Positions 1,389-28,955 of a stretch of 64,000 nt of DNA are shown in pieces. The stretch lies in contig DETV01000048.1 of assembly GCA_002361775.1 (NCBI GenBank), positions 2,186 to 66,185 on the forward strand, read 5' to 3'. The position numbers and the translations under genes were made by a program. This DNA is from Eubacterium sp. UBA3279. Its GTDB lineage: Bacteria; Bacillota; Clostridia; Lachnospirales; Lachnospiraceae. The notes beneath the pieces were generated by a model. It saw only the letters and a program-made list of their open reading frames with translations. It did not search any database and had not been told where the DNA came from. Within the stretch, counting starts at the first letter, position 1; each line of letters opens with the position of its first letter.

Positions 1389-3722
1389 TTATAAGCCTTC
1401 ACCGGGCTTCGTCGTCATCAAGCGGTACAACTTCGTATTCTTCGGGAACTTGTTTGCAAACGGTACAAGAGAACTGCCAACCTTGATAAGTCCGTGTCCT
1501 GCATCAACATTCGTGATATACGAAAGCTGAAGGTCGGAGATATTCAAAAGCTTTGCAAGTTCCAGTCTGTCGGTAGAAGCCTGATTGAGCATAATGATAA
1601 ACTCGCTGTTTGCAAGCATTGTTCTTGCGGTATGGCTCTGTAAGAGGTCGTCCACATTCTGCGTGATACCGGTTGCGTATGCACCGTACTTTCTTACACG
1701 CTTCCAGAGTGTAAAGAGGAAGTTTGCAGAATACTCGTGTTGGAACAAGAGGTAAATCTCATCAATGAAGATAAAGGTATGCTTACCCTTTGCTCGGTTC
1801 TGTGTGATTCGGTTCAAAATGCTATCGAGGACGACAAGCATACCGATTGGCATAAGCTGCTTACCAAGGTCGAGAATGTCATAACAGATAAGTCGATTGT
1901 GAGTGTCTACATTTGTCTGCTTTGCAAATGTGTTCAGCGAACCGTGGGTAAACAACTCAATAGCAAGAGCGATTTCCTTTGCTTCCGGCTCATCCTGTTT
2001 GAGAAGTTCATCTCTGAAATCCTGCAAGGTCGGAACCTGCCCGGTGTAATCATTCTGCTGATAGGTGCGGTAAACGCTTGCAGTGCAACGGTCAATAATG
2101 GACTTCTGCTTTGCTCCGAGATTTGTACCGCCGATAAGCTGTTCGCAAAGGGACATAATAAACTCGGATTTCAAGATAACAGGATTTGCTCCGTCGCCAT
2201 AGTCCTTGTTCATATCCATTGCATTGATATGGTTTTTCGATGTTGCGGAGATATTGATAATCTCTCCACCAAGTGCATTTACAAGGTGGGAATACTCCCT
2301 CTCAGGGTCGATGATGATTACATCGGCGTCGGAAGAAAGGATAATATTTTCAATCTCCCCCTTAGCCGCAAAGGACTTACCGCCACCAGATACACCGAGG
2401 ATAAAGGAATTACCGTTAAGAAGCTGTTTTCTGTCGGCAATTATCATATTTTTACTGATAACATTCTGACCGTAGTAAATACCGTTCTCGTGGTAAATAT
2501 CCTGAACTCTGAACGGAATAAACACTGCAAGGCTCTCGGTTGTAAGGGTTCTGAAGGTATCAATTTTCCTTGTACCGTATGGCATAACGGTATTGAGTCC
2601 GTCCATCTGCTGAAATTTAAGAACCGCAAACTGACAAAGATGCTTTCTCGCTGTTGTGAGCAACGCTTCTGTATCGTTATCGAGCTGTTCTTTGGTATCT
2701 GCGGTATGCACCATCGTAAGCACTGCGAACATCATTCTCTGGTCACGGGTGGTAAGGTCATCAAGAAACTCTTTCATTTCCTTTTTCTGCTGTTCCATAT
2801 CATAAGGAACGGTTGCCGAAAAGTTATTGTTCATATTCTGCTTTCTCTGCCAGTTCGTGATGTTGGTTTCTACACCGAGCAATCTGTTTTCGGCTTCTCT
2901 GACTGCTTCATCGGTAGGAACAGGTACAATATCAATGGACATCATCAGATTTCGGTTCATATCCGTAAGTTCCGCCACCATACTGTCCTTGATATAGGAC
3001 GCATATTCACGTAAAAAGATAACTCTGCCATAACGATTGCCGATTTTGAAATAATCACTTTCAAATTCTAAAGAGTCCGGGCAAATATAGTCCTTGAAAT
3101 CGTGTCCTTTCTTTCGGGTTTCCTTAACATCAAAGTGATACGAGGTTTCCTCTCCCACACGGAAGAAATCGTGAATAATGCGAAGTCGCTCATCTGTTTC
3201 AAGTTCCACGCACTTACTGCCAAGTCGTGAAAAGTGTGAAATCAAATCCGCACCCACACGGGCAAAATAAGTTCTTGCGTCGTCTACATTCTTTTTGTTG
3301 ATGGAGATGGTCACATACTTATCCTGCACCGTTGAATTTGCTCCCGTCGCCTTATCAAGAAGCATTTTATTGTATTCCTCTCGATACTCATCAAGTTCAT
3401 CTCCGGTTTCAGGAATAAGGATTGTTTTCTCAAAGTCCAAACGGTTCAGTCGTCTGTTGTTGATAGTGAGCTTTGTTGTTGCTCCACTGTCAAGAGAGTT
3501 AAGCAGTTCCGAATACTCAAGGAACATCGCTTCCTTATCTTCTCGACTGGCAACCGCATAGTTAATATCCGTAAACTTAAAAGATTTGGAATACTTATCT
3601 TTGCCCACTCTGAAAACACCGTCGTCATAGATGGCAGTAACCGGAATACAGTCCTGCACACCCTTCGGTACAACGAATTTTTCCTTATCCTGCTTAAAGA
3701 TGTTGTTTAATGTCTTAATCAT
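1389..3722 (-). CDS. virB4: VirB4-like conjugative ATPase
   Basis: Walker A GVSGGGKS, IIDPEREY, Walker B FIDEIY, RVRKYG; start moved to ATG 3722 (MIKTL) after AGGAGG. Confidence 0.93.
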   Translation of the reverse strand: MIKTLNNIFKQDKEKFVVPKGVQDCIPVTAIYDDGVFRVGKDKYSKSFKFTDINYAVASREDKEAMFLEYSELLNSLDSGATTKLTINNRRLNRLDFEKTILIPETGDELDEYREEYNKMLLDKATGANSTVQDKYVTISINKKNVDDARTYFARVGADLISHFSRLGSKCVELETDERLRIIHDFFRVGEETSYHFDVKETRKKGHDFKDYICPDSLEFESDYFKIGNRYGRVIFLREYASYIKDSMVAELTDMNRNLMMSIDIVPVPTDEAVREAENRLLGVETNITNWQRKQNMNNNFSATVPYDMEQQKKEMKEFLDDLTTRDQRMMFAVLTMVHTADTKEQLDNDTEALLTTARKHLCQFAVLKFQQMDGLNTVMPYGTRKIDTFRTLTTESLAVFIPFRVQDIYHENGIYYGQNVISKNMIIADRKQLLNGNSFILGVSGGGKSFAAKGEIENIILSSDADVIIIDPEREYSHLVNALGGEIINISATSKNHINAMDMNKDYGDGANPVILKSEFIMSLCEQLIGGTNLGAKQKSIIDRCTASVYRTYQQNDYTGQVPTLQDFRDELLKQDEPEAKEIALAIELFTHGSLNTFAKQTNVDTHNRLICYDILDLGKQLMPIGMLVVLDSILNRITQNRAKGKHTFIFIDEIYLLFQHEYSANFLFTLWKRVRKYGAYATGITQNVDDLLQSHTARTMLANSEFIIMLNQASTDRLELAKLLNISDLQLSYITNVDAGHGLIKVGSSLVPFANKFPKNTKLYRLMTTKPGEGL

Positions 3723-4080
3723 TATTCTTGTAAGCCTCCTTTGTCTTTTTCTCAATGCTCGGTTTCATCAGTTCTAAATAGGTGTTTGTGGAGTGAAATA
3801 CCAACTTCTTGGGCATAAGAAATTCAGACTTAATCCACGCCCATATAAATTTCTCCGCTGTCATTCCGTTGTATTTCACAAATCCGAGAGCCGCAAACGG
3901 TGCTGCTCCCAAAATACACACCCACGATACTGTTTCTGTTCCAAGATGCGGTTTGAGTAAGAAGTACAACCCTACTGCCACACCACACGCAAGGACAGAA
4001 AAAATGAACTGTCTGAGCGACAGCCCAAAGAACATTGATTCTGTGTAATTTCGTATTTCTCTGTTAATCTTCACTTCCAC
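3715..4080 (-). CDS. prgI: PrgI family protein (VirB3-like)
   Basis: MEVKINREIRNYTESMFFGLSLRQ, two TM segments, directly upstream of virB4. Confidence 0.85.
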   Translation of the reverse strand: MEVKINREIRNYTESMFFGLSLRQFIFSVLACGVAVGLYFLLKPHLGTETVSWVCILGAAPFAALGFVKYNGMTAEKFIWAWIKSEFLMPKKLVFHSTNTYLELMKPSIEKKTKEAYKNND

Positions 4081-7802: not shown

Positions 7803-7813
7803 ATCAGTACCTC

Positions 7814-8698
7814 TTATCTTTCATAATCTTTTGAGCGTGTCTGCTTTTTCTTATACAGTTCATCGGACACACGGGAATGAACATCAGCCATCGCATTTCT
7901 CGTCTTGGATAGTTCAAAACGAATGTCCTTCGGCTCTTTGTTTGCCAGCTTATCCGGAATACGGTTGATGGCAAAATTCTGTGTATCAATCCCATACTTC
8001 TTGCAAAGCATATATCCGATACACACCGCCTGAAAGCCCGTATCAGAACGACTGTAACTGTCGCTGTTGATGGAAAGCTGTGCGTGTCCCAGTTCCTGTG
8101 CTACGCACTGTGCAACCGCTACGCTGTCTCCCACATCACGCTTTACATACAAGGTCTGTTCCTCATTATTGTAAAACGCCGCCATATTTGGATAGGGGAG
8201 GTCGTTTGTTGCTTCTACATTCACAGGAGAAGAATCAAGCATTGTGGTAATCAGTGCTTTCGGGTCACGATTAGCTGTCGGTGCAGGCGGTCGTTTCCCA
8301 TTGGTCTGTGCCACATCAAACACTTTCTTCACATTGTAGGAAATGCCTGTTGTTCCGTCACGCTTTGCATATTCCACCGGTTCAAGAATGGATATGCTCT
8401 TAGCACCTTTTGTAATTTTAATGTTGTCTTTGCTCCAGTCATCAAAATCTTTAAGCTGTACCGCCTGCGGATACTGCTTGTAAATCAAAAGTGCGTTGAC
8501 TGCCGAATATCTGTCAAGTCGGCTCTGTGTATCAAGGAACGCTTTGAATTTCTCCGGCGAAGATACAATCTCTTTCGCCGCTTCATCCGCAAGCTGATAC
8601 ACAGCGTCTTTCTCGGCTCGTTTCTTCTCAGCATATTCCTCTTTGGAAAGTCTCGGTCGCTGACCGCCTGCTTTTGCAGGAGTAAAATTTTCTGTCAT
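7814..8698 (-). CDS. ArdC-like ssDNA-binding / anti-restriction protein
   Basis: RYSAVNALLIYKQYPQA...FDDW...KGAKSISILEP N-terminal ArdC motif; C-terminal AQELGH (HEXXH-like, first His replaced). Confidence 0.7.
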   Translation of the reverse strand: MTENFTPAKAGGQRPRLSKEEYAEKKRAEKDAVYQLADEAAKEIVSSPEKFKAFLDTQSRLDRYSAVNALLIYKQYPQAVQLKDFDDWSKDNIKITKGAKSISILEPVEYAKRDGTTGISYNVKKVFDVAQTNGKRPPAPTANRDPKALITTMLDSSPVNVEATNDLPYPNMAAFYNNEEQTLYVKRDVGDSVAVAQCVAQELGHAQLSINSDSYSRSDTGFQAVCIGYMLCKKYGIDTQNFAINRIPDKLANKEPKDIRFELSKTRNAMADVHSRVSDELYKKKQTRSKDYER

Positions 8699-12799: not shown

Positions 12800-12822
12800 A
12801 TTGACCACCTCACATTTCATTC

Positions 12823-15800
12823 TTATCTTTCATACGACTTCTCCTTTCGCTTCTCGGTCGATTCGCCCTCATCAGGCTCGCCGCCTACAATTTCATTTTC
12901 CTTTTTATCCATATTGAGCAAGATATTCAGCTCGTCCAAACGGGCAAGTTTTGACTTCAATTCTTCTTCCTGCACAAACGGTTTTTGCACTTCTTTCTGT
13001 GCGGTTTCAAACTGATTTTTCGTATCAGCAAGACTGTCCTTTGCTTTTTCAAGGTCGTCTGCAAAACGCTCAACCGCATTATCAATACGAGTGATATTAC
13101 CGAAAACATCATCGCCAAGCGACACCTGTTTGCCGGTTTCTCCCTTGACTGTCACGCAGTAAGAACGCTCTGTTGTGTCAAAAGACAGCTCCGTTTCAAA
13201 TCCTCTGTACTTACCGAGAGGAATAGGTGCAGGACTTGTCATTTCCTTGCAGGCTTCGATAATTGCTTTACCTGCGTCTGCCTTTTCGGAATAAAAAACA
13301 CCCTTAACCTCCATACCGACAAAGCGGTCATCTGTTGGTTTCGGGTGTTGTTTTGCAGTTTTCACATCTGCCGTCAAACCGTTAATTCGGTTTTCAAGAG
13401 AAGTGATACGCTGCGGATAATATTTAATTATCTTATCCTCAAGACTATACTTTTCAGATAGGAAATTGGATTTTAAGAGCTTCAATTTCTGTACCTGAAT
13501 GTCCAAATCCATCTTTTCCTTGATATATGGATTGCCTGTTGCAAGCATTTTAATCTCGGCATAAGATAGTGCGGTTTCATCAATATCTTCCGCACTTCTG
13601 ACGGGAGATTTGCTTGTCATAATCTGTGAAGCGAACTTCTGCTTTCCTTCGACAAGCTGATACAGATATGCGTCAAAGGTCTGCTTGGTAACATAACGAT
13701 AAATTTCCACCTTTGGATTAGAATTCCCCTGACGGATAATCCTACCACTACGTTGCTCCAAATCTGCCGGTCGCCAAGGACAATCAACATCGTGAAGTGC
13801 GATAAGTCTGTCCTGAACATTCGTACCGGCACCCATTTTTTGTGTTGAACCCATTAGCACTCTGACCTCACCTTTACGGACTTTCTGAAACAATTCTTTC
13901 TTCTTCACATCGGTTTCCGCTTCGTGGATAAATCGGACTTCGCTTTCGGGAACACCTCGCTCTATGAGCTTCTTTCTGATGTCGTTGTAAACGGAAAATG
14001 TTCCGTCGTTCTTTGGAGTAGATAAGTCGCAGAACACTAATTGTGCCGACTTTTTATCCTTGTTTTCTTCCCATATGCGATACACATTATCAACGCATGC
14101 ATTGATTTTACTGTTTTCAAAATCAGGCAGCATATCGTTTAACATACGCTGGTCAAGTGCAAGTTTTCTACCGTCGTTTGTTATCTTGAGCATATTATCT
14201 ACGCTTGAATCTACACCTCCGCCACGAACTTTCTCGGCTCGCTCTGCAAGGGAAGCAACCATTTCTTTCTGCATTTCGGACGGTTCAACTGACACATTAT
14301 GATACTCTGCTTCCGGCACAGGGAGGTTAAGCATATCGGCTGTTTTAATGTCTGCAACCTCTTTGAACATCGCCATAAGTTCGGGTAAGTTATAGAATTT
14401 AGCAAAGCGTGTTTTCGCTCTGTAACCCGTTCCCTCCGGCGTAAGTTCTATTGCTGTTACCGTTTCTCCAAATGTGGAAGCCCAAGCGTCGAAGTGCTGT
14501 AATCCGTTTTTCACAAGGGTATTATATTGCAAGTATCGCTGAATGGTGTAAAGTTCCACCATACTGTTTGAGATAGGCGTACCTGTCGCAAATACAGTTC
14601 CTCGTCCGCCGGTAATCTCATCAAGGTATCGGCACTTCATAAAGAGGTCGGAAGATTTCTGTGCTTCTGTCTGTGCAATACCGCCTACATTACGCATTTT
14701 TGTGTAAAGATAAAGGTTCTTGTAATAATGACTCTCATCAATAAAGAGCCTGTCCACACCTAATTCTTCGAAGGTTACAACATCATCCTTTCTGCTTTGG
14801 TCGTTGAGTTTTTGGAGCTTTTGCTTAACGGATTTTCTTGATTTTTCAAGCTGTTTGACAGAGAAGTTTTCTCCTCGGTTACGCTTTAGTTCTGCAATTC
14901 CTTCCGTCAATTCATTCAACTGCTGTTCAAGAATTGCCCTCTGCCTTTCAATCGACATCGGGATTTTCTCAAATTGAGAATGTCCGATGATAACTGCGTC
15001 ATAGTCGCCTGTTGCAATTCTACCACAGAACTTTTTACGGTTCTTTGTTTCAAAATCCTTCTTCGTCGCAACCAATATATTTGCTGACGGATAAAGCTGC
15101 AAGTATTCCGCCGCCCACTGTTCCGTCAGATGATTCGGTACAACAAACAGTGATTTATTACATAGTCCAAGCCTTTTCGACTCCTGCGATGCCGCTACCA
15201 TCTCGAACGTCTTGCCTGCCCCGACTGCGTGTGCAAGCAAGGTATTTCCACCGTAGAGAATGTGTGCAACCGCATTTCTCTGGTGTTCCCTTAATGTGAT
15301 TTCCGGATTCATGCCACTAAATGTGATGTGGCTTCCGTCATACTCACGAGGTCTGATACTGTTGAATTTTTCGTTATACATCTTCTTGAGTTTCTCTCTA
15401 CGGTCAGGGTCTGCCCATATCCAATCCTGAAAACCTTGTTTGATAAGTTCCTGCTTTGCCTGTGCGATTGCCGTTTCCTTTTTGTTGAGAACTGCCTTTT
15501 TCCTGCCCTCATCATCTTCGATATAATCAAAGATACGAACATCTTTCAGGTTCAGCGTTTCCTCAATTATTTTGTAGGCATTGATACGACCTGTTCCGTA
15601 TGTGCTGTACGCTTTGACATTGGAACGGTCATAACTTTTTCCCTCGATATTCCACTCGCCCGTATAGGGAGAGAAGTGAACTTTTATATTCCACTGTGCA
15701 TATCTCGGTGTATCAAGGAACTCAAACATAAACTGCTGGATTATCTCCTGTGGCAGCCAAGTAGCACCGAGCCTTACAGATATTTCGCTTGCAGTCAAGT

Positions 15801-18800
15801 CTTTCGGCTGAACCTTTTCCAGTGCTTCCACATTGATTTTGTAATCTTCAGGATAAAGTTCAGCCGACTTCTTTGCTGTGATAAGTTTCTCCCTGACATT
15901 GCCTGAGAGGTACTCATCTGCCATCAAATACTTTGCCTCAGTTACATTCCCGTACCCGTAAAGCGGATTTAAGAAGATAACGCCTTTCAAATCCTGATAG
16001 AGCGTCTCCTCACTTTTACCTGTGAGTTTTGACATATACTCCATATCAATCTCGGCTTTTTCTCCCATAGAAACAGCAAGTGCTTCACTGGCGGTATCTA
16101 CCTTTTCTACCGGCTTATGTGGCTTAATTGTACGCTTGAAGAACATATCCGCCTTGCGTTCCAGTTCTCCGTTTTCGTTAATGACTTCAAGTGCAGAAAG
16201 CAAGGCAAAGGAACTGTCATCACTGAAAGCAGAGATATTTGCTCTGCTGTTAATCAGTCCGTATTTCTTTGTGTAACTGTCATAAAGACTGTTGAGTTTT
16301 GACTGTTCGGCTTTGATTTCTTCATCCGGATAGTCCTCCGTTTGCAGTTCAATCAGGTTGCGAACGCTGTCACGAACAGCAACCATACCCTTGATTCTGT
16401 TTTCTGCGGTTGCCGATACCTCAACCGGAGTCATACGGGAATTTTCACGGAAATAGATTTTATCATCCACAACCGTGTAAGAAAAATTTCTCACATTCGG
16501 GTCTGCCGGAATAGAATTGTCTTCTTCCTCAAGTTCAGCTTCTACTTCATAATCGTTGATTTCTCCGTGTATATTTGCTACCGCTTCCGATAATAATTCT
16601 GATAAATCGGCATTTTCAAACGGTATACAAGTTACTTCTTCTCCAAAGCGTCCACTTACTGTTTTCATCTCGCCCAGTATCATTTCGGGATGTTCCACAA
16701 AGTACGAGTTCATCGTGATACCGTCATCGGTTGTGCCAAGTTGTACCCAATTAGGCTCTATATCTATGAGCCTGTCTCGCTTTTGCAAAAACAAAATATC
16801 CGATACAACTTCTGTACCGGCATTGCCCTTGAATGTGTCATTCGGAAGTCTGATTGCTCCCAAAAGGTCGGCTCTTTGAGCGATATATTTTCTGACCGAC
16901 GAATTCATTTTATCCATCGTGCCTTTGCTTGTCACAAGTGCCATCACACCGCCGGGTCTTAACTTATCCAAAGCTTTCGCAAAAAAATAATCGTGAATAA
17001 GGAAGTTATACTTATCGTACCTCTTATCAAGTACCTTGAAATCGCCAAACGGAACATTTCCCACAACTCCGTCAAAGAAGCTGTCCGGCACATTGACTTC
17101 TTCAAATCCCTGTGCTGCTATGGATGATTTCTGATAAAGTTGCTGAGCAATCCCTGCCGAAACAGTATCAAGTTCCACACCGTAAATCTTTGTATTTTTC
17201 ATTGACTCCGGCAACATACCGATAAAATTACCGATGCCGCAGGACGGCTCTAACAGATTGCCCTCCTTAAATCCCATCTGCTCCATTGCCTTGTATATAG
17301 CGTCTGTAACTTCTGGAGGAGTATAAAAGGCAGTCAGTGTGCTTTCTCTTGCGGTGGCATATTCTTCGGGAGAGAGTGCGGTATATAACTCAACAAATTC
17401 ATCTGCCCACGCCGAATTGTTCTCATCAAAGGCTTCTGGCAAACCTCCCCAGCCGACATATTTTGACAAAATAAACTGTTCTTCAGGTGTGGCAAATCTG
17501 TTTTCAAACTCACATTCCTTCAGAACCTTTATGGCTTCCATATTCCTGCGAAAGCGTTCTTTCTTGCCTGCCGGCTCTACCGGATTGGAACGCAAATCAA
17601 AAGTATTTCTCTCTGCCATCGGAATATCCGGGTGCAAATCAAAACTCTTGACCTTGCTCGTTTTATTCTCCCACTGCGGTTTTATCGGTTCAGTCTCTTT
17701 ATCATAGCCATTGCCGATACGAATGCCCTCGTTATACATCTCATCGTAGCTGTCAAAGCCATTCTGATTTGCAATGATTTCTCGGTAGTCCTCAATAGGT
17801 ACTTTACCAATATTGGTTGCTACCATATCGCTTCTTTCGGTATTTTCAATGAGTGCTCCCATTGTATCAGTCGTACATTCTGTAAAATCCGGTGTCTGCC
17901 TGAAAGCTGTATCTGCTTCTTCAAACCATTCTGTACCTACATCGGCAAGGGTTTGATTTGCGACACTGCCGAGGTAATCAAAGAACTCATCTGCCGATTT
18001 ATAGTTCTGTGCAGCATTTCTGATTTCATCAAAAGAAAGCGTATTTGTAACATACTGACCGCCGGCACTACTGTCTGGATTAAAGTACATCCAAGTAACG
18101 CTTTCCTGCTCTCTGTTAATGAAAAACGCATCCTCATAATCTGTTTTCTGTTCGGTTTCGGTATCACTATGCGTGATATTTTCGTCTGTATCGGCTTTTT
18201 CTGCGGCAGGTAATACCGTTACCCTCAAGTGGTCATTCAGCGGATTTTCCTGCACTTTGCGGTCAAATTCTCCCCTTGAAAACTCCTTGTTGAACAGTGG
18301 CATTTCTGTATCGTAAAGCATTACTCTCTCATCATCAAAAGATAAGATTTCATACTCCGAAGCACCGATATATACCGTGTCTCCAAGATGATATTCATAT
18401 CGGGTATCAGGTAATTGCTGTTCCTGTGTTTGCTCTGCAAGCAGACTGCGGACATAATCAATCTTCTCTACACGGTTAATCGGGAAACCTACGCTGTCCT
18501 CAAAAGTGACATCTCGCATAGAAACATCGCCGCTTATTTTACCGATACTTTCAATAACAAATCGGCGGGCATCAATCACAATTTCCTTGCCGATAATATC
18601 GTCATCATTTGCCTGCTCTGCTTCTTTCGGTGGTGCAGTAGAAAGAATTTCCCGATTTCTTTTCTGCTCCTCGATTTCTGCCCGTCTTGCTTCCTGCTTC
18701 TCAAGCCACTGCGGATACTGCTCCTTTTCCTTTGGATTTAAGTATCTGTCTGCACGGATAAGCTCCCCGATACGCTTTTCCACCTGTGTCCATTTAAGAT

Positions 18801-20664
18801 TGAGTTTCGGTGCGTCGTTTCCAAATCCTCTTGAAAGAGTTATGCCTTTCCCATCGTGGTTTTCATCAATACCTGCACCGATAATGACAGGATATGAACC
18901 TCCCCAACCGTATTCGTTTTTGAGAAAGTCTGCATTTTCTTTTGAAGATAAACTCTTTTGAAACTGCTCATAGATACGCATTTTACCTTCGTAAATACCG
19001 CTTCCACGAGTCAGAACTGCGTCGATAATCTCCTGAGAAAAAGTAAAGGCAGAGGTTTTGTTTTCCTCTGCCTGACCGTCTAATATGAAGCTCATCTGTC
19101 CGTCTACCGACGGTAGCGGTTTCATTCTATCATTTAATTCTCCCAAAAGACGCATTGCTTCAAAGTGCTGTGCAATCACACTCCAATTATAGAAACTCTG
19201 TGCAGTTCTGCTGTCATAATGACCTTCCCAAAGATGCAAAACATTCTGAAATGTCTTGTAACCTACGGTTCTCCCATCCTCTAATGTGAGTTCGGTATAG
19301 TCGTTATTGAAGATACTCTTGATATATTCGGTACGGGTATCGCTATCGGTATTTCTCTCATAGAGGTCTTTAATATCTTCAAGAGAAGCCGATAAATGCG
19401 GTGTAGTACCGAGTATCTCTCGGATAGTATCATCCCCACCGAAAAACGGCAGGCTCTTATCCTCGTTGCTTCTGTCGTAATACTCTAAACGAATATTACC
19501 TGTGCTTTCACGATTTCCTGTGCCGAGTTCCTGATGTTGTTCATCAAGCGAATCCAATTCATCATATCGTCCGCTTTCATCTGCTCCGTCAGCCCCTCTT
19601 GCTGTGCCATCTGCCTGATAAGCGTTTCTTCCAGTTTGGTCGCCCTCTGCTGTACTTCTGACAGATGACTGCTCAGTATCCCTTTCGTCAGGAGATTGTA
19701 ATACTGAACCTTGTGGTGTTCTTTCAGATAAGTTCTCCTCATCTGCGACCATTTGCCCTGAATGACCTCCGGCTGTTCGGGCAGAGTCAGGTTCGGAAGA
19801 TTGTAATCCCCGACCATCGTGTATGTTATCTCGTTCATAATCGCTACTCCTTTCGTCTTTGATGTCTTTATTGTATTCCGGTTGCCTGTTTGCTTCAATT
19901 ATGCGATTTTGACGGTTCAGTGCCATCACTGTTTTTGAGATTTCCGAAAGTCCCATCTCTGCAATATCGCTTGTGGCAAATCCCAGAGCGTTCATCGTAT
20001 CCTGCGTATTGAAATTTGTAACATCTCGAAAATCATCTACTTCAAAGTATTCGCTGGTATCAATTCCAAGCCTTGTCATAATCATATATGCCACGCTGTT
20101 TGTGACAACCTTTTTATACAGACTTGCAATCATCGTTTCGTCAAGTCCTTCTAAGAAACTGTCCTCGGAAGCATATATGAGGTCATTAAGATAATCCGGC
20201 AAATTATCTTCGGCGGCATTTTGTGCGGCACTCATAACTGCTTCGCCCAAAGTGACTTTGTTATCCAGTTCTCCGAATGTGCTTTCAAGCGTTTCAATAA
20301 CATCGTCTGTGTATTCGTTCCTCATATTCCAAAGTGGAACAGGACGGGAATATCTGCTCTCGTGAGTATCGGAAATATCGAAGTAGTGGATAAGTCTTTG
20401 TCTTGCTCTGTTTTCATCGGCAAATACCGCAATACCTCTTGCCCCTCTATTTACCCAACGTCCAAAACTCCTGTTCCAACGCTCGATTTCAAGAACTGCC
20501 GTAGCGTCCGGTCGCTGTGCATATATAAGCAACTGCTCATCGTATCTTAGCTTATAATTCCTACACGCAGACTGCAAGAAATTCCGCCAGTTCTGCGGAT
20601 TGGAAACAACCGTCTTGCAGGTTCTGTCATAGAGTTCGGATATGAGTTCGTATTTTCTTGACAC
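12823..20664 (-). CDS. Giant ArdC-N / N6-adenine methyltransferase / SNF2 helicase fusion (DarB-like)
   Basis: LLEPSCGIGNF and GNVPF MTase motifs; AHAVGAGKT, FIDESH, ATGTPISNS, QRSGRIIRQGN helicase motifs; ArdC-like N-terminus. Confidence 0.88.
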   Translation of the reverse strand: MSRKYELISELYDRTCKTVVSNPQNWRNFLQSACRNYKLRYDEQLLIYAQRPDATAVLEIERWNRSFGRWVNRGARGIAVFADENRARQRLIHYFDISDTHESRYSRPVPLWNMRNEYTDDVIETLESTFGELDNKVTLGEAVMSAAQNAAEDNLPDYLNDLIYASEDSFLEGLDETMIASLYKKVVTNSVAYMIMTRLGIDTSEYFEVDDFRDVTNFNTQDTMNALGFATSDIAEMGLSEISKTVMALNRQNRIIEANRQPEYNKDIKDERSSDYERDNIHDGRGLQSSEPDSARTAGGHSGQMVADEENLSERTPQGSVLQSPDERDTEQSSVRSTAEGDQTGRNAYQADGTARGADGADESGRYDELDSLDEQHQELGTGNRESTGNIRLEYYDRSNEDKSLPFFGGDDTIREILGTTPHLSASLEDIKDLYERNTDSDTRTEYIKSIFNNDYTELTLEDGRTVGYKTFQNVLHLWEGHYDSRTAQSFYNWSVIAQHFEAMRLLGELNDRMKPLPSVDGQMSFILDGQAEENKTSAFTFSQEIIDAVLTRGSGIYEGKMRIYEQFQKSLSSKENADFLKNEYGWGGSYPVIIGAGIDENHDGKGITLSRGFGNDAPKLNLKWTQVEKRIGELIRADRYLNPKEKEQYPQWLEKQEARRAEIEEQKRNREILSTAPPKEAEQANDDDIIGKEIVIDARRFVIESIGKISGDVSMRDVTFEDSVGFPINRVEKIDYVRSLLAEQTQEQQLPDTRYEYHLGDTVYIGASEYEILSFDDERVMLYDTEMPLFNKEFSRGEFDRKVQENPLNDHLRVTVLPAAEKADTDENITHSDTETEQKTDYEDAFFINREQESVTWMYFNPDSSAGGQYVTNTLSFDEIRNAAQNYKSADEFFDYLGSVANQTLADVGTEWFEEADTAFRQTPDFTECTTDTMGALIENTERSDMVATNIGKVPIEDYREIIANQNGFDSYDEMYNEGIRIGNGYDKETEPIKPQWENKTSKVKSFDLHPDIPMAERNTFDLRSNPVEPAGKKERFRRNMEAIKVLKECEFENRFATPEEQFILSKYVGWGGLPEAFDENNSAWADEFVELYTALSPEEYATARESTLTAFYTPPEVTDAIYKAMEQMGFKEGNLLEPSCGIGNFIGMLPESMKNTKIYGVELDTVSAGIAQQLYQKSSIAAQGFEEVNVPDSFFDGVVGNVPFGDFKVLDKRYDKYNFLIHDYFFAKALDKLRPGGVMALVTSKGTMDKMNSSVRKYIAQRADLLGAIRLPNDTFKGNAGTEVVSDILFLQKRDRLIDIEPNWVQLGTTDDGITMNSYFVEHPEMILGEMKTVSGRFGEEVTCIPFENADLSELLSEAVANIHGEINDYEVEAELEEEDNSIPADPNVRNFSYTVVDDKIYFRENSRMTPVEVSATAENRIKGMVAVRDSVRNLIELQTEDYPDEEIKAEQSKLNSLYDSYTKKYGLINSRANISAFSDDSSFALLSALEVINENGELERKADMFFKRTIKPHKPVEKVDTASEALAVSMGEKAEIDMEYMSKLTGKSEETLYQDLKGVIFLNPLYGYGNVTEAKYLMADEYLSGNVREKLITAKKSAELYPEDYKINVEALEKVQPKDLTASEISVRLGATWLPQEIIQQFMFEFLDTPRYAQWNIKVHFSPYTGEWNIEGKSYDRSNVKAYSTYGTGRINAYKIIEETLNLKDVRIFDYIEDDEGRKKAVLNKKETAIAQAKQELIKQGFQDWIWADPDRREKLKKMYNEKFNSIRPREYDGSHITFSGMNPEITLREHQRNAVAHILYGGNTLLAHAVGAGKTFEMVAASQESKRLGLCNKSLFVVPNHLTEQWAAEYLQLYPSANILVATKKDFETKNRKKFCGRIATGDYDAVIIGHSQFEKIPMSIERQRAILEQQLNELTEGIAELKRNRGENFSVKQLEKSRKSVKQKLQKLNDQSRKDDVVTFEELGVDRLFIDESHYYKNLYLYTKMRNVGGIAQTEAQKSSDLFMKCRYLDEITGGRGTVFATGTPISNSMVELYTIQRYLQYNTLVKNGLQHFDAWASTFGETVTAIELTPEGTGYRAKTRFAKFYNLPELMAMFKEVADIKTADMLNLPVPEAEYHNVSVEPSEMQKEMVASLAERAEKVRGGGVDSSVDNMLKITNDGRKLALDQRMLNDMLPDFENSKINACVDNVYRIWEENKDKKSAQLVFCDLSTPKNDGTFSVYNDIRKKLIERGVPESEVRFIHEAETDVKKKELFQKVRKGEVRVLMGSTQKMGAGTNVQDRLIALHDVDCPWRPADLEQRSGRIIRQGNSNPKVEIYRYVTKQTFDAYLYQLVEGKQKFASQIMTSKSPVRSAEDIDETALSYAEIKMLATGNPYIKEKMDLDIQVQKLKLLKSNFLSEKYSLEDKIIKYYPQRITSLENRINGLTADVKTAKQHPKPTDDRFVGMEVKGVFYSEKADAGKAIIEACKEMTSPAPIPLGKYRGFETELSFDTTERSYCVTVKGETGKQVSLGDDVFGNITRIDNAVERFADDLEKAKDSLADTKNQFETAQKEVQKPFVQEEELKSKLARLDELNILLNMDKKENEIVGGEPDEGESTEKRKEKSYER
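19485..19838 (-). CDS. TnpV family protein, nested in alternative frame of the giant helicase gene
   Basis: GAAAGGAG RBS 8 nt before ATG; MNEITYTMVGDYNLPNLTLPE..GKW..MRRTYLKEHH..YYNLL..G.L..HL..EQMKADDMMNWIRLMNNIRNSAQEIV is the TnpV pattern. Confidence 0.8.
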   Translation of the reverse strand: MNEITYTMVGDYNLPNLTLPEQPEVIQGKWSQMRRTYLKEHHKVQYYNLLTKGILSSHLSEVQQRATKLEETLIRQMAQQEGLTEQMKADDMMNWIRLMNNIRNSAQEIVKAQVIFV

Positions 20665-28599: not shown

Positions 28600-28955
28600 A
28601 TTTATTCATAGCCAATAAAAACGGCTATGTACTTGACCGTTTCATTTCCTAAACGGTCGTGGCAATATTTATTCTCAATATCCCTTGCCAAGCATATCGC
28701 TTTCGGGAAGTCGTTAAGGAACAGGCTGCTTATCTGTATCATAGGAATCTAACCTCTGCCGGGTACTCCGCCAGCTCCGTAGAGAAGTATCATTATCTTT
28801 CTGACCGTCATCGCCATATCGGTTGCAATCCGATACTCATAGCAGGAGTTCTCGCTGTTCTGAAATTTCAGAAGTTTCGGCGTACCTACTAAAGTGGCTA
28901 TCATCAGAATTAAAGTCTTAACGACCTGTGTATTCAGTTGTCAAAGAACAAGTGA
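28600..28955 (-). ncRNA. Candidate structured 5' leader RNA of the parA-to-transfer operon
   Basis: Stems at 28607-29, 28635-58, 28660-90, 28817-35, 28858-73; long-range 28710-18/28917-25; G-U extensions favour the minus strand. Confidence 0.45.
28932..28951 (-). promoter_or_regulatory. boxA-like antitermination element
   Basis: Minus TTGTTCTTTGACAACTGAAT resembles rrn boxA (E. coli TGCTCTTTAACAA; Firmicutes GTTCTTTGAAAAC). Confidence 0.55.

Follow-up and report, generated by a model that had tools for sequence, protein, structure and literature searches.

The locus studied here raises the question of how a long reading frame can run uninterrupted through a second, complete gene. In a 64,000-nucleotide (nt) stretch of Eubacterium sp. 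UBA3279 (hereafter the window; GenBank assembly GCA_002361775.1, contig DETV01000048.1, positions 2,186 to 66,185 of the forward strand), a giant open reading frame (ORF) encloses a full-length tnpV gene on the same strand. The initial annotation had read the giant ORF as a fusion, produced when an ancestral ardC-tnpV-helicase operon lost a stop codon and the alternate frame of tnpV became the linker, and had taken it for a snapshot of how overlapping genes arise. Our comparison of the locus with its relatives indicates that the layout is very probably an anciently fixed and selected gene within a gene, in which a polyvalent protein carries an ArdC-like header and, after it, a tether of some 120 residues, encoded by the tnpV DNA read in the -1 frame. 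The tether would join the header to a DNA methylase and an SNF2 helicase. The units concerned are listed below.

12823 to 20664, minus strand: giant polyvalent ORF, 2613 codons, open throughout, with a GTG start and AGGAGG 10 nt upstream
19879 to 20664, minus strand: ArdC-like head unit (residues 1 to about 262 of the giant protein), with a predicted two-domain ArdC fold and no HExxH
19485 to 19838, minus strand: tnpV, 117 codons plus stop, ATG at 19838, frame +1 relative to the giant ORF
19847 to 19854, minus strand: Shine-Dalgarno (SD) sequence of tnpV, GAAAGGAG, 8 nt before the ATG, where the giant frame reads E-R-S

The giant protein comprises, in order, the ArdC-like head, the linker, an Eco57I-type N6-adenine methylase and the SNF2 helicase. 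Pfam places the methylase (PF07669) at about residues 1175-1268 and the SNF2 (PF00176)/ResIII/Helicase_C motor at about residues 1790-2313, and finds no match within the first 1100 residues. The tnpV overlap covers residues 276-394, where the giant-frame reading is acidic and of low complexity. With its head, methylase and SNF2 motor in one frame, the protein fits the definition of a polyvalent protein, namely at least two effector domains in one polypeptide with ArdC-N at the N-terminus. Polyvalent proteins of conjugative elements with such an ArdC-N 'header' have been described (Iyer, Burroughs, Anand, de Souza and Aravind 2017, PMC5512222), and they likewise combine an ArdC-type single-stranded DNA (ssDNA)-binding head, a methylase and a SWI2/SNF2 ATPase in one polypeptide of a conjugative element; the head was proposed to pilot the protein into the recipient with the DNA. 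Here, in contrast, the tether is the alternate frame of a live gene, and the head is a whole two-domain fold without HExxH. The words TnpV and overlapping are absent from that paper. By analogy with the class, and with a conjugative context read from the neighbouring genes, the giant protein may be delivered into a recipient through a type IV secretion system.

The nested gene is complete. Its product matches the Pfam family TnpV (PF14198) over positions 1-111 of 111 with 136.7 bits (cut-off 27; E-value 4e-40), and phrog_24764 with an E-value of 8e-36, which PHROGs labels 'unknown function'. The predicted structure, an N-terminal hairpin plus helices, has a predicted local distance difference test score (pLDDT) of 90, and no convincing structural relative was found in the PDB (best Foldseek E-value 3.8; best VIA-wide Z 6.1, generic helical). 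A Xis-like activity of TnpV is an old suggestion, repeated in PMC3158075.

A search of 400 species from the same class, with the head (280 residues) as query, gave matches in 67 genomes; the 86 head loci obtained were scanned with head and TnpV profiles built in this work. About 70 of the 86 matches lie in open frames of more than 1000 amino acids (aa), the shorter ones being contig ends, frames broken in or after tnpV, or architectures of 688-820 aa. A TnpV match lies downstream of the head in 79 loci, always in the +1 frame (79/79). The giant frame is free of stops across tnpV in 78 of these 79, and tnpV is intact in all of them. They represent 63 genomes, 52 genera and 33 families, and form 26 clusters at 60% TnpV identity. 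A phylum-level sample (30 head matches) added 12 loci with TnpV from other classes, 12/12 in the +1 frame and 12/12 open, while three RefSeq plasmids (Cohnella, Clostridium botulinum and C. perfringens) have the same layout. Altogether, all 94 loci with a detectable tnpV have it downstream of the ArdC-like unit and in the +1 frame, and the overlap persists at head identities as low as 22% and TnpV identities as low as 14%.

As a control, we analysed 44 free-standing tnpV genes, including four from the same genome as the window. The frame equivalent to the giant one contains 2-20 stops in these genes (mean 6.7) and is open in none (0/44). Chance openness is thereby estimated at about 1/1000 per lineage, which implies that selection must hold the giant frame open. 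Could the long frame nevertheless be an assembly or frameshift error, or a pseudogene, with three ordinary genes being the real ones? Gene callers seldom permit such overlaps, and the RefSeq records list either the giant gene or TnpV, one of the two. However, the same open frame recurs in dozens of independent assemblies, complete genomes and plasmids included, and the controls speak strongly against openness by chance, so that the probability left to an artefact or to decay is negligible.

The four free-standing copies from the same genome (C68:86913-87248, C93:13884-14225, C4:39942-40286 and C53:6315-6659) are full-length and have stops in both other frames; one of them adjoins a large serine recombinase. 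The third frame across the embedded copies (L007-L092) is never open and averages 15 stops per gene, as against about 8.7 in free-standing tnpV; the purging of stops in one frame seems to push stops into the other.

The two frames differ in what selection preserves. In 16 phylogenetically independent close pairs, each difference in the overlap was sorted by its effect on either frame, and the rates were Jukes-Cantor corrected. They were as follows.

Amino-acid change in the giant frame, none in TnpV: 0.61
No amino-acid change in either frame: 0.61
Head, outside the overlap, synonymous sites: 0.53
Amino-acid change in TnpV, whether silent in the giant frame or not: 0.09
New stop in the giant frame, no amino-acid change in TnpV: 0.016

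Omega is about 0.15 for TnpV and about 0.13 for the head. Purifying selection on amino acids therefore acts on one of the two overlapping products, TnpV, and the giant-frame tether drifts at the synonymous rate; giant-frame conservation falls over exactly the tnpV span and then returns downstream. Judged by these rates, the analysis shows TnpV to be the selected product of the overlap and the tether amino acids to be effectively neutral, the giant frame being selected just to stay open and in register. The proposal that the linker is the alternate frame of tnpV is supported: it is exactly that frame, and by its substitutions it behaves as a passive by-product. Two genes can in this way share DNA without adaptive conflict, one frame bearing the amino-acid constraint and the other merely staying open, since it encodes a flexible tether. 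Long same-strand overlaps in bacteria are rare and often disputed, and this one has unusually clean comparative support.

The initial annotation had also likened the N-terminus of the giant protein to a stand-alone ArdC-like protein encoded elsewhere in the window, and this resemblance holds; the head can fairly be called a second ArdC-like unit of the element.

7814 to 8698, minus strand: stand-alone ArdC-like paralogue, 294 aa, ending in RSKDYER; Pfam ArdcN E-value 0.0057 (marginal)

In BLASTP, giant residues 1-300 matched this protein with an E-value of 2e-9 and 25% identity over 114 columns (giant residues 8-113), and the head-unit profile matched the stand-alone gene (locus L161) over profile positions 2-201 with an E-value of 9e-19. 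The head of the window has no match to Pfam ArdcN (PF08401) at E <= 0.1, below the gathering score, but the fold search recovered ArdC. Weak ArdcN matches occur in 5 of 31 head relatives (best E-value 1.2e-4), and the head profile found nothing among PDB sequences. The AlphaFold model of the head, built on 31 relatives, has a pLDDT of 93, and its top three Foldseek matches in the PDB are all R388 ArdC (6I89, 6SNA; probability 0.96-1.00), the next rows having E-values near 1. VIA-align gave Z 11.1 and 10.6 for R388 ArdC, the next chain scoring 5.4, with 215 residues aligned. The alignment runs from model residues 6-245 on ArdC chain residues 7-291. Given that both domains are covered, the modelled head corresponds to a whole ArdC-like unit, beyond ArdC-N alone; the link in sequence is weak, and the link in predicted fold is clear.

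R388 ArdC is a conjugative-element anti-restriction protein. In contrast to it, the head of the window is fused rather than free-standing, shares only 6-10% identity with it, falls below the ArdcN threshold and lacks the HExxH metalloprotease motif, which is absent from giant residues 1-280 although the fold of the second domain is kept. We read the head as a complete but non-catalytic ArdC-like 'header'. From its likeness to ArdC, it may bind ssDNA or protect DNA from restriction.

The ArdC-like fold stops a few codons upstream of the tnpV SD, roughly where stand-alone ArdC-like proteins end. At this junction the giant protein reads KDERSSDYER, which had been taken to mirror the stand-alone C-terminus RSKDYER. 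The string is indeed present, with the tnpV ATG (19838) inside the TAT-GAA codons that spell Y-E; the mirroring is another matter. Among 70 distinct relatives, the junction peptides read xERSxx, then N, D, H or Y, then mostly E-R. The first E-R is the SD, GAAAGG; the variable residue (Y here) is fixed solely by the free base preceding the ATG; and the second E-R is TnpV M-N/S-E read one base earlier. Because the junction residues are spelled by the SD, by the base before the ATG and by the first codons of tnpV, DYER is, on this codon-level reading, a local coincidence of the window and no relic of a C-terminus. Homology with the stand-alone C-terminus was also considered at the nucleotide level and rejected: DYER is not conserved, and the 17-nt string that ends the stand-alone gene is absent at the tnpV junction, recurring instead at the 3' end of the giant gene with 3 mismatches. 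These two gene ends, 7812-7828 and 12821-12837 (both minus strand), share nearly the same 14-17 nt (TATGAAAGATAAGA), which yields ...DYER* in the stand-alone protein and ...SYER* in the giant one, with a tiny MKDK... ORF in each. The shared string may relate to the '...ER tail' pointed out in the initial annotation.

SD-like sequences within an ORF can stimulate frameshifting, as in prfB, and one sits inside the giant ORF here. Were ribosomes programmed to shift to the +1 frame near this internal SD, the product would be an ArdC-TnpV fusion protein, with no separate start for TnpV; the tnpV frame of the window is indeed open for 20 codons upstream of the ATG. However, the ATG stands at the expected position and with normal SD spacing in nearly all loci; an SD-like motif lies 4-16 nt before it in 66 of the 76 unique loci. 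Between SD and ATG the bases are free to vary, and no slippery or hungry codon is conserved there; in some loci (L019, L023) the tnpV frame has a stop just 6-7 codons before the ATG. These features make frameshifting a highly improbable source of TnpV.

Further sequences in and around the giant ORF suggest that tnpV has its own transcription signals.

19870 to 19898, minus strand: promoter-like site, TTGAAG-17-TACAAT, its -10 box ending 32 nt before the tnpV ATG; the giant frame reads E-Y-N
19117 to 19476, minus strand: optional domain of about 120 residues (giant residues about 397-516), between the tnpV stop and the terminator-like hairpin
19035 to 19073, minus strand: terminator-like hairpin, 9-bp stem AGGCAGAGG/CCTCTGCCT, 9-nt loop and T-rich tail
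28739 to 28796, minus strand: pemK RNA motif (Rfam RF02913, 67 bits, E-value 2e-10), upstream of the giant gene and in the same direction

Of 76 loci, 33 have a -35/-10 pair of sigma-70 type that ends 15-120 nt upstream of the ATG (13% would be expected from other parts of the same strand), and most of the promoter-like sites in the relatives end at 32-35 nt. Towards its tail, the head alignment is conserved at just two places, 'YN' and 'ER', and these are the -10 box and the SD. Downstream, a hairpin of 7-11 bp with a T-run follows tnpV inside the giant ORF in 34/76 loci, against 12% expected. Its position in the protein is constant, coding for A-E-E...S-S-A-F-S-F-S, and its stems differ between clades while the pairing is kept (covariation). 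The hairpin of the window (about -16 kcal/mol, z -2.8), where the giant frame reads Q-A-E-E-N-K-T-S-A-F-T-F-S, lies 412 nt beyond the tnpV stop because the optional domain intervenes. This domain has no Pfam match and is conserved in, and confined to, the clade of the window; about 30% of the aligned relatives have it and about 70% are without it. Thereafter the giant protein continues into a domain common to all relatives. At the consensus level, the promoter, SD and terminator appear to be signals of a once or still independent tnpV.

On this basis, tnpV would be expressed alone from the internal promoter and SD, and its transcripts would end at the hairpin inside the giant ORF. A terminator within a 7.8-kb coding sequence needs explaining, and from the pemK motif and the precedent of Tn916 canT we infer antitermination. 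The motif may form the core of a processive antiterminator of the canT type, and the full giant mRNA would come from main-promoter polymerases that this upstream pemK/canT-like RNA has made terminator-resistant. The canT RNA of Tn916 has been demonstrated to mediate processive antitermination through internal terminators (Wirachman and Grossman 2024, PMC11658703). Both systems would offer a route for transcribing a long conjugation operon across intrinsic terminators, with the difference that the Tn916 terminators are intergenic, whereas the predicted hairpin here is inside a coding sequence and antitermination at it is putative. If the internal promoter and terminator are real, the coding sequence holds a complete transcription unit, and its expression depends on antitermination.

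How old is the overlap? The initial annotation proposed trees of each module. When the head tree is rooted on stand-alone ArdC-like proteins, the fused family comes out as one clade (support 97), with nested tnpV in every basal lineage; the TnpV tree is not decisive on the direction of origin. Had the ardC stop codon been lost recently in this lineage, separate ardC, tnpV and helicase genes should survive in close relatives. The end of the ArdC-like fold just upstream of the tnpV SD and ATG agrees with such a loss, as does the retention by tnpV of its own expression signals. However, no stop before tnpV, whether right after DYER or elsewhere, was found among the 86 class-level and 30 phylum-level head matches, and separate ardC, tnpV and helicase genes were found in no homologue. 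The same +1 overlap moreover extends over 33 families and into other classes, at the low identities given above, with all basal lineages overlapped and DYER unconserved. A recent loss is therefore very hard to maintain, and the locus presents a fixed end state rather than an intermediate or a snapshot of an overlap arising. Three findings had been named in advance as counting against the proposed read-through: of these, fusion of essentially all homologues and lack of conservation of DYER were observed, and an N-terminus unlike ArdC was not. Stand-alone ArdC-N proteins such as that at 7814-8698 were considered as the 'unfused' version and rejected, as no tnpV lies downstream of them.

Most likely, three units, namely a gene for an ArdC-like protein, a tnpV cassette and a gene for a methylase-helicase, would have merged into one reading frame. 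This merging would be no recent event but would date back at least to the last common ancestor of this ArdC-like subfamily. The shared downstream domain starts right after the terminator, and tnpV resembles a complete cassette. Together with the end of the fold before the SD, this fits three units joined by read-through, which is plausible but unproven. The operon read-through of the initial annotation thus agrees with the units and with the independent tnpV signals, and no unfused, ancestor-like form was found to go with them.

The order of events may also have been different, the giant gene being fused first and tnpV arriving later, either by insertion of a promoter-to-terminator cassette or by de novo overprinting with later escape. 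We consider this possible but rather unlikely. Fusions between ArdC-N headers and other domains are common where no tnpV is present (PMC5512222), and giants without tnpV that have a short linker exist (L068, L070); L068, however, nests among tnpV-bearing lineages, and its tnpV-less state is accordingly, from its place in the tree, a loss of tnpV. The overlap in all basal lineages of the head tree can be read in favour of a later tnpV, and so can the TnpV tree, in which embedded copies hold the deepest branches, free copies lie within the embedded diversity, and just 3 changes between the embedded and free states are needed. The free-standing sample was, however, drawn from top Pfam scores and is biased. 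TnpV is moreover confidently folded and strongly selected, and it is the unconstrained linker frame that bears the usual signature of the younger frame.

The histories of tnpV and head also differ in places. Between the window (L007) and L012 (G280:C1:164395-168228), TnpV is 82% identical (15% nucleotide divergence) and the head 58% identical (39% nucleotide divergence), so that a recombination breakpoint must lie near the head/tnpV junction; on these sequences, tnpV alleles recombine between elements. With the biased free sample and this recombination, the trees are not decisive among engulfment of tnpV, cassette insertion and birth in the tether. The last of these would mean that the TnpV family (PF14198) was born by overprinting the disordered tether of an ArdC-headed polyvalent protein, the free tnpV genes of Tn4451-like elements being later escapes. 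This reading is compatible with the data, since the basal head lineages all have the nested gene and the sampled free copies nest within embedded TnpV, and we hold it to be improbable; if true, overprinting would have given birth to a widespread, well-folded bacterial family of de novo, out-of-frame origin.

Several points weigh against the ancient, selected gene-within-a-gene that we favour. In L022, L021, L041 and L044 the giant frame breaks within or just after tnpV. The promoter and terminator come from consensus scans that fewer than half of the loci pass, and in the window the terminator scan finds none directly after tnpV, having missed the hairpin with its 9-nt loop. Both products are predicted from sequence, and the canT-like action of the pemK motif is putative. 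The nesting of free TnpV copies within embedded ones is a misfit with a simple story in which a free tnpV was engulfed. Finally, with no known function and no structural relative, TnpV offers no reason for its place inside the giant gene.

Two loci have unusual arrangements of tnpV. In L041 (G303:C216:31983-34983), a tandem tnpV pair follows the head and the giant frame terminates where the truncated first copy ends, which looks like a duplication or recombination scar. In L111 (G171:C11:197670-198610), a free tnpV starts where the giant gene is cut within the helicase C-terminal motif (...DCPWRPSDV), which points to insertion of a tnpV-bearing element into the giant gene.

Known out-of-frame genes nested in others are comS, which lies within srfAB of Bacillus subtilis, and Rz1, which lies within Rz of phage lambda. 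As in these cases, tnpV is complete and small, lies wholly within its host gene, shares its strand, is read in the +1 frame and has its own translation start. In contrast to them, conservation and fold belong here to the nested gene, and the host frame encodes a neutral tether; tnpV has ordinary free relatives, the overlap is kept across the phylum, and tnpV appears to carry its own predicted promoter and terminator. The copy in the window resembles the tnpV genes of Tn4451/Tn4453 and Tn6104-6106 (PF14198) in being full-length (about 117 aa) and in having an SD and an ATG of its own; those genes, however, are free-standing and adjoin large serine recombinases (PMC3158075), and the window copy is nested out of frame within another gene. 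Full-text literature searches of open-access papers and preprints found no description of a nested tnpV.

Just one of the two genes is listed in each of the three RefSeq plasmid tables checked: the C. botulinum p05/025 and C. perfringens plasmids list the giant gene without TnpV, and Cohnella lists TnpV without the giant. A conserved gene of gut and pathogen-associated conjugative elements is therefore easily missed. Relatives occur in Clostridioides, Streptococcus suis and clostridial plasmids, and embedded-type TnpV appears in NCBI as 'TnpV protein' in Clostridioides difficile, S. suis and others. In the Cohnella herbarum plasmid (L133, NZ_CP051681.1), RefSeq gives an antisense 'hypothetical protein' at 3289-3852 (minus strand of the locus) opposite the head and lists no giant gene, probably by mis-annotation or through a pseudogene call not shown in the plasmid table; the giant frame is nonetheless open there for more than 1260 codons.

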